From positions 1,728,001 to 1,792,000 of the forward strand of contig OY762492.1 in assembly GCA_963665845.2 (NCBI GenBank): a stretch of DNA of 64,000 nucleotides, written 5' to 3'. Source of the DNA: Candidatus Poribacteria bacterium. GTDB taxonomy: Bacteria; Poribacteria; WGA-4E; GCA-2687025. Below are positions 9,066 to 12,296 of the stretch, piece after piece (position 1 is the first letter of the stretch; each line of letters starts with the position of its first letter). The notes under the pieces are model-generated. The model did no database searches. It was not told the DNA's origin and was given only the letters and a program-made list of their open reading frames with translations. A program made the translations under genes and the position numbers.

Positions 9066-9728
9066 CTAACGCCGTTTCAACGAACCCCAAGCGGTCGCTT
9101 GCTTGCCGGCAGGATCAACAGACAGATTGTCCGCGTCCAGGTTGAATTCAATGTTGTTTGCGTCAATGCCGACAAAGAGACTCCATCCGCCTCCCGCCTC
9201 GCTGCATTTGACAAGCATCGGGTTGGAGCCGCGGTTCAGCTCCACAGTGAATGTGTCCTGAAAATCTTGGGCGCCGCGGTTTATGGCGTGGCGGTGAACC
9301 ACCTCGCCGTTGATCCAGATCTTGATGGAGTCGTCGCTTCCGACCCTGCCGGTTCCTTTTTGCTTTTGGCGCGATTCGACATTGATCCAGCCGTAGATGG
9401 TGTGGTTGTTGATGTCGGGGACATTCGACAAACCGATCTCGTTGATCATCAGGTTCACGTTGTTTCCGCCTGTCGCGGCGATCTCGCCTTCCGTCCATCT
9501 ATATTGGCCGACCTTGTCCCCTTCCTGTGGAGGGCTTTTCAAAATCTTCTCTTCGGTCACCCTTCCATTCGACGCTTCATCCAGCGAGTCCACGTCGGTG
9601 GCTGCAGCGCCGCCCGGCGCGGCCGGAGCAATTATCCAGATCCAAGGTCCGGTGATCTTCTTCTGCGCATACGCGACCTGGCTTGTCAGGAGCGCCGCGC
9701 ACGCCATTACGACAATCTTTCTCATCAT
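9066..9728 (-). CDS. Secreted protein with one PA14-like beta-sandwich domain and C-terminal SVDPxGK..WG.LK motif
   Basis: Signal peptide ending AYA-Q, GSDDSIKIWINGE, C-terminus LSVDPAGKQATAWGSLKRR; RBS aggagg. Confidence 0.8.
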   Translation of the reverse strand: MMRKIVVMACAALLTSQVAYAQKKITGPWIWIIAPAAPGGAAATDVDSLDEASNGRVTEEKILKSPPQEGDKVGQYRWTEGEIAATGGNNVNLMINEIGLSNVPDINNHTIYGWINVESRQKQKGTGRVGSDDSIKIWINGEVVHRHAINRGAQDFQDTFTVELNRGSNPMLVKCSEAGGGWSLFVGIDANNIEFNLDADNLSVDPAGKQATAWGSLKRR

Positions 9729-9744
9729 GCATCCTCCTATTTGA

Positions 9745-10977
9745 TCAGAGACTGCCGCGTTTCAGCGCGCCCCAAGCGGTCGCCTGCTTGCCTGCAGGGT
9801 CAACCGACAGGTACTGGTTCGTATTGTATTTCACATCATGCGTCACCGCAATGCCGAAGAAGAGCGACCAGCCGCCGCCGCGCTCGCTGCACTTGACCAG
9901 AACAGGGTTCGGGCCGTTGCGAAGCTGAATCGGAAAGTCGCGCATATAGTTGCCTGCGCCCTGATTGCCGGCGAACCGCTCCACTTCCTCGCCGTTCACC
10001 CACACCTTCGACGAATCGTCCGTGCCGATATAACCGCGCGCTTTCTGGGCGACGGGCGAAACGACGTTGATATAGCCGTAGATCGTGTGGTCGTTGATGT
10101 CGGCAACATTCGACAAGCCGATCTCGTTGATCATCAGATTCACATTGTTTCCGCCTGTCGGCGCAATCTCGCCTTCCGTCCATTCGTAATCGCCGACCTC
10201 TTGCCCTTCGCGCGGACCCCACATGGCGATCTCTTTCTCGGTCGTCCGTCCGTTGGACGCTTCATCCAGCGAGTCGATGTCGGTGGAGTTCGCTCCGCCT
10301 TGGTTGATCTCGGTCGGCGCGATGACCCAGAGGTACGGTCCCTCCAGTTTCGGCGGCGGTTCAAATTCAGCGGCTTCATACTGGACGCCGCCCGCCTTGA
10401 ATTCCGCGTTGATGCCAGCCGACAGCGTCCATCCGCCGCCGCGCTCGCTGCATTTCACCAGCAGAGGATTCTCCCCCGCCTTCAAGTTCACCTTGAAATC
10501 GTCCTGGTAATTTTCTCCGCCCCCTCGGTTGACAGCGTTTTTATGCACCTCGTCGCCGTTGAGCCAGACCTTGATCGAATCGTCGCTTCCGACGCGCATC
10601 GTCACATTGTTCTGCGCCTTCGGGGAATCGATCATAATGAATCCGTATGCCGTGTGATCGTCCACATCGCCGCCGGTCAAGCCGATCTGCGTCAGCATCG
10701 CATTGACCTGCCCGTTCGCCAGCGTCCCTTCCGTCCATTTCACGCCGCCGACAACGTCCCCCGCCTTCGCGCCGTCTTTGGCAACATCCAGCTCCGTCAC
10801 ATCGCCGTTGGTCGCCTTGTCAAAGGAGTCGACATCGGTGGACGCTTGTCCGCCTTGACCCGCCTCCGTCGGATAGACGACCCAGAGCCAGGGACCGACG
10901 ATTTTATCTTGCGCCTGCGCGCCCATCGCCGTCAAAAAACCGCACAGGGCAGCGCCCAGCGCCATTCGCCATCGCAT
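9745..10977 (-). CDS. Secreted protein with two PA14-like domains and C-terminal SVDPxGK..WG.LK motif
   Basis: Signal peptide ending AQA-Q, GSDDSIKVWLNG and GTDDSSKVWVNG, C-terminus LSVDPAGKQATAWGALKRGSL. Confidence 0.8.
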   Translation of the reverse strand: MRWRMALGAALCGFLTAMGAQAQDKIVGPWLWVVYPTEAGQGGQASTDVDSFDKATNGDVTELDVAKDGAKAGDVVGGVKWTEGTLANGQVNAMLTQIGLTGGDVDDHTAYGFIMIDSPKAQNNVTMRVGSDDSIKVWLNGDEVHKNAVNRGGGENYQDDFKVNLKAGENPLLVKCSERGGGWTLSAGINAEFKAGGVQYEAAEFEPPPKLEGPYLWVIAPTEINQGGANSTDIDSLDEASNGRTTEKEIAMWGPREGQEVGDYEWTEGEIAPTGGNNVNLMINEIGLSNVADINDHTIYGYINVVSPVAQKARGYIGTDDSSKVWVNGEEVERFAGNQGAGNYMRDFPIQLRNGPNPVLVKCSERGGGWSLFFGIAVTHDVKYNTNQYLSVDPAGKQATAWGALKRGSL

Positions 10978-10997
10978 TCTTTATCCCTCCAAATCTT

Positions 10998-11037
10998 TAA
11001 AGAAGAGGGAAACGGAGAGAGAATCCCCCCGTTTCCC
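10998..11037 (-). terminator. Probable intrinsic terminator or stabilising hairpin between paralogous genes
   Basis: Minus strand reads GGGAAACGGGGGGA-TTC-TCTCTCCGTTTCCC followed by TCTTCTTT, about 30 nt after the stop at 11067. Confidence 0.55.
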
Positions 11038-11066
11038 GGTACGTTGTTTCAGAAAACGCGCGCGGC

Positions 11067-12296
11067 TTACCGCTGCGCTTTCAGCGATCCCCAGCTGACA
11101 GCCGCTTTGCCTCGCGGGTCGACGCTCGTCGATGTCTGAAACTCGACGGTTTCGTCCATCGCGGCGAAGAAGCTCCAGCCGCCTCCGCCTTCCGTCACCT
11201 TCATCAAAACGCGGTTGAATCCCGCCTGAAGCGTGACAGGGAACCCTTCCTGGACGTCGCCGGCTCCTCGCGCCGCCGGGTTTGTCCAGACGACTTCGCC
11301 GTTCATCCAGACCTTCACCGAGTCGTCGCTGCCGACATGCATGACCGTTTCCATGCGCTGTCCGACGCTGAAGACGATGTAGCCGTAGATGCCGACGTTG
11401 TTGAGCGCCGCGTTATCGGTCAACCCGAGCTCAACCGCCAGATCGTTCGCGTTGTTGCCGCCTGTGGGCGCGATTTCGCCCTTCGTCCATTGTAGGTCGC
11501 CCACCTTGGCGCCTTCGCGCGCGCCGCGCGTGGCGATCTGTTCTTCCGTCACGGAGCCGCCGCTCGCTTCAGACAGCAGATCAACATCAATGGCGCCGGG
11601 CCCGTCCAGTCCGCCTGACATGGCGATCATCCAGAGCCATGGGCCGGTGATGTTTTCGCCTGGAACGGAATCGGCGACAGGGTCTTTCTCATACTGGACG
11701 CCGCCGGCAGTGAATTCGGCGTTGATGCCGAAGTGCATGCCCCAGCCGCCGCCAGCCTCGCTCACCTTCACCAACACGCGGTTGGTTCCAGCTTTCAGGT
11801 TGGCGCGGACCTTGTCCTGATAGCGTCCGCGGCCTCGGTTGACGGCGTTTGTGTGAATAACCTCGCCGTTGAGCCAGATCTTGATCGAGTCGTCGCTTCC
11901 AGAGGCGACGAGGACGTTTTCCTGCGCGCGCGGCGACTCAATATCGATCAGGGCGTAGGAGCTGATGTGGTCCAGGGAGCCGTTTTCCGTTACGCCGGCG
12001 TTGACGAGCATCGCATTGATGTCGCCGTTGTCGGGCAGCTCAATGGATGTCCATTCGTAATCGCCGACCTTGTCGCCCGCCTTGGCGCCGTTTTTGGCGA
12101 CGCCTTCTTCGGTGACGGCGCCGTCGGTCGCGGCGGAGAGCTGGTCAAGATCGGTTGACGCTGCGCCGCCCTGCCCAGCTTCCGTCGGGGCGATGACCCA
12201 GAGGTACGGACCCGACAGCTGCGTCTGGGCATGCGCGAGCGTCCCCGCCAGCGCCAGTCCGAGCGCCAGCGCAAAAAATCGCTTGAATGCTTTCAT
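11067..12296 (-). CDS. Secreted protein with two PA14-like domains and C-terminal SVDPxGK..WG.LK motif
   Basis: Start reassigned to ATG 12296 (MKAFKRFFALALGLALAGTLAHA-Q signal peptide, aagga RBS). Two GSDDS(I/V)K.W.NGE domains; C-terminus TSVDPRGKAAVSWGSLKAQR. Confidence 0.8.
   Translation of the reverse strand: MKAFKRFFALALGLALAGTLAHAQTQLSGPYLWVIAPTEAGQGGAASTDLDQLSAATDGAVTEEGVAKNGAKAGDKVGDYEWTSIELPDNGDINAMLVNAGVTENGSLDHISSYALIDIESPRAQENVLVASGSDDSIKIWLNGEVIHTNAVNRGRGRYQDKVRANLKAGTNRVLVKVSEAGGGWGMHFGINAEFTAGGVQYEKDPVADSVPGENITGPWLWMIAMSGGLDGPGAIDVDLLSEASGGSVTEEQIATRGAREGAKVGDLQWTKGEIAPTGGNNANDLAVELGLTDNAALNNVGIYGYIVFSVGQRMETVMHVGSDDSVKVWMNGEVVWTNPAARGAGDVQEGFPVTLQAGFNRVLMKVTEGGGGWSFFAAMDETVEFQTSTSVDPRGKAAVSWGSLKAQR

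Follow-up and report, generated by a model that had tools for sequence, protein, structure and literature searches.

The tripartite C-terminal signals LPXTG, PEP-CTERM and GlyGly-CTERM, which are paired with sortase, exosortase and rhombosortase, respectively, consist of a motif, a transmembrane (TM) helix and a basic tail. The type A C-terminal domain (CTD; TIGR04183 and FlgD_ig PF13860) of type IX secretion systems (T9SS), which works with SprA, PorV (NF033710) and the sortase PorU (NF033707), is a beta-sandwich of 70-90 aa found on Sec-exported proteins of any fold. According to the passages cited here, the CTD of Bacteroidota binds PorV loops inside SprA (PMC10994853), and PorU, whose cleavage site is X/(GSA)(VLI), adds a glycan (PMC4560394, PMC11969387), the cut having also been called sequence-independent (PMC4804311). 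Such passages further describe short CTDs of 43-55 aa in Prevotella intermedia, which keep three strands and motifs B, D and E (PMC11969387), and a type B CTD with cognate PorP-like carriers, a second signal class that uses its own carrier barrel (PMC9143113). Here, we analyzed a stretch of 64,000 nucleotides (the window; positions 1,728,001 to 1,792,000 of contig OY762492.1) from the genome of a Candidatus Poribacteria bacterium (GCA_963665845.2), in which three neighbouring genes encode secreted proteins ending in a short conserved tag. The tag is real and phylum-wide, it recurs in fixed register directly before T9SS CTDs, and it may be a miniature T9SS signal.

The three genes lie on the minus strand. 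Tagged protein 1 (9066..9728, 220 aa) consists of a signal peptide, one PA14-like beta-sandwich and the tag LSVDPAGKQATAWGSLKRR (9069..9125, minus strand), which forms the C-terminal end, scores 33.5 bits with the tag hidden Markov model (HMM), and is predicted to be a loose linker followed by a short basic amphipathic helix. Tagged protein 2 (9745..10977, 410 aa) and tagged protein 3 (11067..12296, 409 aa from the ATG) each comprise a signal peptide, two PA14-like domains and, after the last domain, a single tag, namely LSVDPAGKQATAWGALKRGSL (9748..9810, minus strand; 34.0 bits) and TSVDPRGKAAVSWGSLKAQR (11070..11129, minus strand; 31.4 bits), respectively; no TM helix occurs in any of the three. 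The initial annotation had reported three signal-peptide proteins with this ending, and the tails are present as it quoted them; its range of 9066..11126 holds genes 1 and 2 and leaves most of the third gene outside. The three proteins are paralogues (39-62% identity) in which a single domain occurs once, twice and twice, respectively, and thus alone they are no proof that the tag is independent of the fold.

For the distribution of the tag over the whole genome, the gene set comprised 3,126 called proteins; gene calls and the signal-peptide test came from in-house scripts and are heuristic rather than the output of standard predictors. When 76,112 six-frame segments were searched with a loose pattern, all of the 92 matches lay within 26 aa of a stop, and the 18-column tag HMM reached at least 10 bits in 116 proteins (3.7% of called genes), with all 116 tags within 30 aa of the C-terminus; the best score of the same HMM in the reversed proteome was 5.8 bits. 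The core W[GAS]x[LIVM][KR] was found within the last 30 aa of 125 proteins versus 6.7 expected, so that the tag greatly exceeds what chance would give. The consensus is [LT]-S-V-[DNE]-P-x-G-K-x4-W-[GA]-x-[LVI]-K, in which Val and Trp are invariant, Pro, Gly and Lys near-invariant, and the spacing fixed. Signal-peptide-like N-termini were scored in 104 of the 116 tagged proteins versus 807 of 2,949 others, and four of the 12 misses, when re-read, had a signal peptide, or a plausible one, near or upstream of the called start. A lipobox, a twin-arginine motif and a TM helix after residue 45 were all absent from the 116 proteins, in agreement with the earlier claim that the tag lacks a TM helix. 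The tagged bodies formed 22 unrelated clusters, so the tag is not confined to the paralogous family of the window, and the expectation of many C-terminal matches on signal-peptide proteins of unrelated folds was largely borne out. Pfam searches with 24 of these bodies returned PD40 propeller, LamG, DUF1080, CBM9, CBM4/9, GH43_C2, NPCBM, PKD, DUF4960 and reprolysin-like matches, and nine bodies had none. With a median length of 262 aa and a maximum of 464, tagged proteins are small compared with the 61 CTD proteins of this genome (median 904 aa), and the two sets do not overlap.

One tagged family and one further tagged protein showed features of their own. A TolB-like propeller family has 44 scattered copies genome-wide, several of them frameshifted, with acidic extensions of 7-26 aa beyond the tag. 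One member, a TolB-like (PD40) propeller of the window (43083..44231, plus strand), had been said to carry an alignable remnant, and this is a decayed copy, FLSVAPADKKHGQSEEAD... (44133..44231, plus strand), which scores 10.9 bits over model positions 1-11; the first half, FLSVAPADKK, is retained, and the W, G, I/L and K of the W-G-x-I-K core are lost. It is one of two members without the W core among the 44. Separately, a tagged protein that is peroxiredoxin-like by eye (G000:C1:2982281-2982859, minus strand) combines a signal peptide with a TGA that lies in frame, three codons ahead of a Cys, and is likely a selenoprotein, judging from these features of its reading frame.

The tag was also found directly in front of T9SS CTDs. 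Among the 61 CTD proteins of this genome, 16 carry a W[GAS]x[LIVMT][KR] core within the 45 residues before the CTD; they comprise two propeller groups and one S8 protease, in which VKPAGDQDLLTQWGKVK directly precedes the CTD. The pattern G-x-[LIVMF]-K followed by N[YF]PNP occurred in 79 of 81 Poribacteria genomes (control, 4 matches), and 30 of these loci were read, of which 24 were tag-like and six were not. When 21 of the 24 were aligned with the S8 protein, Val stood 11 residues before Gly, as in free tags, and Trp was present in 3 of the 22 sequences. The full W-tag followed by 5-6 residues and N[YF]PNP gave 48 matches in 42 of the 81 genomes, and the Leu/Phe form of the fusion gave 259 matches in 67 (control, 0 in both cases), but these fusions come from a few expanded families, so that 48 and 259 are not independent counts. 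Twenty Trp fusions were read, 14 of which reached at least 10 bits on the free-tag HMM and 13 of which belong to one family. With a Trp-free pattern, Trp was present in 94 of 99 terminal matches and in 0 of 52 internal matches in this genome, and in 66 of 66 matches among homologues. The bodies of the fusions, read by eye, include WD40, FG-GAP-like, S8 and other types. Thus, the full tag stands in fixed register before the T9SS CTD, and its Trp is relaxed there and kept in free tags, which is the main addition of this study.

The tag further behaves as a unit that can be separated from its passenger. In AlphaFold2 models (43 sequences), residues 1-178 of mature window protein 1 were predicted with high confidence, and the tail had a pLDDT of about 48 with a helix across the last 13 residues; together with the single tag on each two-domain protein, this disposes of the possibility that the motif is an integral strand of the preceding domain. 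The best Foldseek match of the domain was the PA14 sugar-binding domain 6m8m (TM 0.51), and sugar binding by the PA14-like domains of the window may be proposed at the level of fold. Window protein 1 has 86 homologues, of which the named ones are all from Candidatus Poribacteria; a T9SS CTD closes nine of the 86, in most cases behind a dockerin-like repeat, and the tag is absent from all nine. Likewise, two CTD proteins of this genome, 1,500-1,600 aa in length, contain copies of the first domain of window gene 3 that are 79% and 84% identical to it. We concluded that the tag is a detachable C-terminal module that trades places with the T9SS CTD on a given passenger domain, and that it acts like a label for sorting or docking. 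It is not represented in Pfam or NCBIfam, an ESM Atlas search with the tail gave no usable match, and no account of the motif was found in the open-access literature, whose supplements, outside the scope of that search, may list such proteins.

The initial annotation had mentioned similar tails on many Poribacteria proteins, and the tag profile indeed matched all 81 Poribacteria genomes, from 17 genera, with 12 to at least 97 matches each. The proposal of a signal specific to this lineage did not hold, since a shorter form occurs in Eisenbacteria, Krumholzibacteriota and Latescibacterota: a search with TWGx[LIVM]KALY reached at least 130 loci, whose titles name these three groups and further bacteria. 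Among the matches listed, 123 of 132 shorter TWGxIKxLY tails end within 6 aa of a stop, after a [VT]-P-[VT]-E-like stretch, and a looser TWG pattern gave 9-59 copies in each of 30 non-Poribacteria genomes (5 in G107) versus 0-1 in the control. The shorter tail is probably homologous to the Poribacteria tag, judging from the common V-E...TWGxIK shape and the position; the spacing differs. In genome G081, three lipoprotein-like genes (L295:11617-15435) carry the tail, one of them in a tandem domain-tag-domain-tag arrangement. G107, a bin that carries the label Patescibacteria, has the TWG motif close to the N-terminus in L139, L140 and L441, after a signal peptide in L139 and L140 and before an M23 peptidase in L139; this bin also has two terminal tags, so that contamination is possible. 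Viral contigs gave 12 tag matches (eight internal in one protein family, two terminal and two other) and no signal.

The genomes that carry the tag also encode parts of a T9SS-like apparatus. This genome encodes a SprA-like protein of 2,198 aa, gives 12 matches to the PorV family and 53 to TIGR04183, and has a pair of large PorU-like C25 proteins that both keep the His-Gly and Cys motifs, with SprA at 181.8 bits and PorU at 320 bits, below the curated cut-offs of 200 and 420. SprA-like genes were found in five of five further Poribacteria. At least two C25 proteins occurred in each of 15 Poribacteria genomes searched, and a PorV orthologue, always followed by a DUF5683-like gene, in 18 of 18. 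SprA was present in 29 of the 30 non-Poribacteria genomes reached through the tail, the exception being a 1.1 Mb bin labelled Patescibacteria. In the other phyla, PorU, PorV, a DUF5683-like gene, NHL, a barrel of 1,130 aa and an Omp85 gene lie in one block. Whereas the initial annotation had envisaged a cognate secretion system, the evidence favours the T9SS-like machinery that these bacteria already have over a separate one.

Several genes of this apparatus deserve mention in their own right. The PorV orthologue and its DUF5683-like partner (G000:C1:1875397-1877258 and L392-L416) share an operon with PorU in other phyla, and the DUF5683-like protein is probably an uncharacterised T9SS-associated protein. 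A protein of 1,100-1,400 aa without family match (G000:C1:3353215-3356535 and L233-L242) has a short region in common with SprA, and is conserved within the PorU-PorV block of other phyla. G000:C1:2940669-2942849 and C1:2162401-2163618 encode a fusion of a PorV-family barrel with a SPOR domain, and a barrel with weak likeness to BamG. As a candidate reader of the tag, we rejected an Omp85-like gene among tagged genes (C1:2082390-2084021), which is adjacent in its own genus only (2 of 25 loci); the DUF5683-like partner of PorV, whose family also occurs in Rhodothermota, did not stand out as tag-specific. A screen of 759 secreted-looking proteins against 1.24 of the 3.2 Mb of G081 gave 94 shared regions and no single candidate.

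Compared with the described signals, the tag resembles the type A CTD in being C-terminal on proteins of unrelated folds that are Sec-exported by the heuristic test, in lacking a TM helix, in being interchangeable with the CTD on one passenger, and in occurring in the same genomes, where SprA, PorV-family and PorU-like genes are present; the Poribacteria tag also opens with a motif resembling the PorU site, one not enriched in the other phyla, and is often fused to a CTD. It differs in structure and family: no family matches the tag, it has 15 residues and a predicted helix in place of 70-90 aa of beta-sandwich, which agrees with the earlier remark that it is far shorter than a T9SS CTD, it lacks motifs B, D and E, its passengers are smaller, and no GldM-type motor was found in the five genomes searched. 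P. intermedia's short CTDs, as described in the cited passages, are a precedent for T9SS signals that shrink and are still cleaved and glycosylated. The type B CTD, as far as its source describes it, sets a precedent for a signal served by a dedicated carrier, and 12 PorV-family matches were counted in this genome; however, no carrier gene lies beside the tagged genes. With the tripartite signals the tag shares a short C-terminal motif, a basic end and many copies on unrelated proteins, but it is set apart from them by the absence of a TM helix (0/116), as the initial annotation had noted; of the two cognate enzymes looked for, exosortase (TIGR04178) had no match in three Poribacteria genomes and one each in G081 and G084, and rhombosortase (TIGR03902) had none over the cut-off in five genomes. 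The tag thus falls outside both the type A CTD and the tripartite signals, yet on the tests that could be run it appears to work like a T9SS signal.

We proposed that the tag is a mini-signal read by the SprA/PorV/PorU-like system, to which we assign a probability of about one half. It ends proteins of many folds, swaps with the CTD, and stands directly before the CTD in Poribacteria. Under this proposal, a tagged small protein would first be exported by Sec, and a carrier belonging to the SprA/PorV-like translocon would then take hold of its short x-W-[GA]-x-[LIV]-K helix instead of the CTD beta-sandwich. Such a grip would account for the fixed Trp of free tags and for the predominance of Leu/Phe in its place before a CTD, where the Trp helix would be a recognition handle redundant with the CTD. 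More speculatively, in Poribacteria one of the two PorU-like C25 transpeptidases might cut at the opening X/[SAG]-V-[DE]-P and join the passenger to a surface glycolipid; S, A or G precedes the invariant Val in 87 of 92 tags of this genome, matching the PorU site X/(GSA)(VLI). The outcome would be a surface library of small modules, mostly of sugar-binding folds, beside the large CTD cargo. Only tentatively do we extend this to a third class of T9SS signal, in which several uncultured phyla would employ a helical peptide of 15 residues, served by a dedicated carrier and sortase and by a SprA translocon that lacks a motor, to present libraries of tens to hundreds of small binding domains at the cell surface.

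A number of observations weigh against a T9SS signal. We know of no helical T9SS signal. GldM (TIGR03517) was found in none of five genomes in a search without a positive control, a complete-looking operon like that of the type II secretion system (T2SS), read from sequence motifs, is present at C1:2723095-2737817, and the co-occurrence of SprA among related genomes is not independent evidence, which adds to the dependence among the fusion counts given above. In the other phyla, (GSA)(VIL) before TWG was not enriched (42 of 123 versus 174 of 581 in the background), P[VT] preceding TWG in 66 of 123 cases; CTD cargo there has typical PT/GV linkers; and fusion of tag and CTD in 30 genomes of these phyla did not rise above the control (14 matches versus 6), as judged in matched DNA with untranslated loci. 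The tandem domain-tag-domain-tag protein, the tagged lipoproteins and the internal tag copies in the SprA-less bin fit a docking peptide equally well. [quoted passage not shown]

As an alternative, the tag would dock by non-covalent binding to some scaffold or receptor, for which a carrier that bears a CTD, the DUF5683-like protein whose gene follows PorV, or a different barrel comes into question. Tagged proteins would then hitchhike through the T9SS-like apparatus, or be held by it, without being cleaved. Such docking would suit a tag that is tolerated away from the end, as in the acidic extensions of 7-26 aa and the tandem and near-N-terminal copies, and on lipoproteins, as well as the unenriched cut-site motif in other phyla and the constancy of the DUF5683-like gene after PorV (18/18). 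We nevertheless consider it unlikely, as loss of Trp before the CTD is unexpected if the tag must dock after export, AlphaFold did not model the tag as packed on its own CTD (pLDDT 51-57), and the range of the DUF5683-like family extends to Rhodothermota. Trp relaxation would equally fit decay, as expected if the tag were a signal for another outer-membrane route, most plausibly the T2SS, and the tag-CTD proteins were route-switched genes. The T2SS-like operon, a secretin in five of five tag-bearing genomes and the small folded passengers are consistent with this; however, V-x-P and G-x-[VI]-K stand in exact register before the CTD in more than 300 genes of several folds (G and K being required by the pattern itself), and with no rhombosortase over the cut-off in five genomes, this route seems to us quite improbable. 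Nor do we know of a linear C-terminal T2SS signal without a TM anchor.

The predicted helix, its net charge of about +2.6 over 11 residues and the acidic bodies could instead point to a basic amphipathic helix that binds membrane lipid or lipopolysaccharide directly, with no protein reader. The hydrophobic moment is modest (0.23), and the conservation of Val, Trp, Pro, Gly and Lys at fixed spacing suggests a sequence-specific pocket, so we hold lipid binding to be slightly less probable still than a T2SS route. Passive spread of a functionless tail by gene duplication and shuffling would account for the 66 of 116 tagged genes that adjoin another tagged gene and for the few copies that decay, but such spread is very hard to credit for a tail conserved in every one of the 81 genomes, across phyla and on folds that are unrelated.

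The surroundings of the tagged genes in the window were also recorded. Directly downstream of them, on the minus strand (1535-8688), lies a run of PspA, spermidine synthase-like, DUF2617, amine oxidase, DUF350 and DUF4178 genes, and a planctomycete-type DUF1549/DUF1553 cytochrome and DUF1501 pair occupies 13440-18616 (plus strand). At 18999-23850 (plus strand), the gene of a 1,104 aa protein without Pfam match runs into the beginning of the gene for a CTD protein, in which dockerin-like and cohesin-like parts were recognised by eye. This CTD protein (22306..23850, plus strand), a secreted protein with an ordinary T9SS-type CTD (FlgD_ig-like) and no tag, served as the comparison protein.

Even as a docking label only, the tag is an unannotated motif on thousands of proteins. 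If it is a T9SS signal, T9SS-type export would need no folded CTD, and a peptide of 15 residues could route proteins to the surface. A new rule would then be available for the secretomes of Poribacteria, Eisenbacteria, Krumholzibacteriota and Latescibacterota, the poorly known T9SS outside Bacteroidota would become testable, and a major sponge-associated phylum would gain a named set of likely surface binders.

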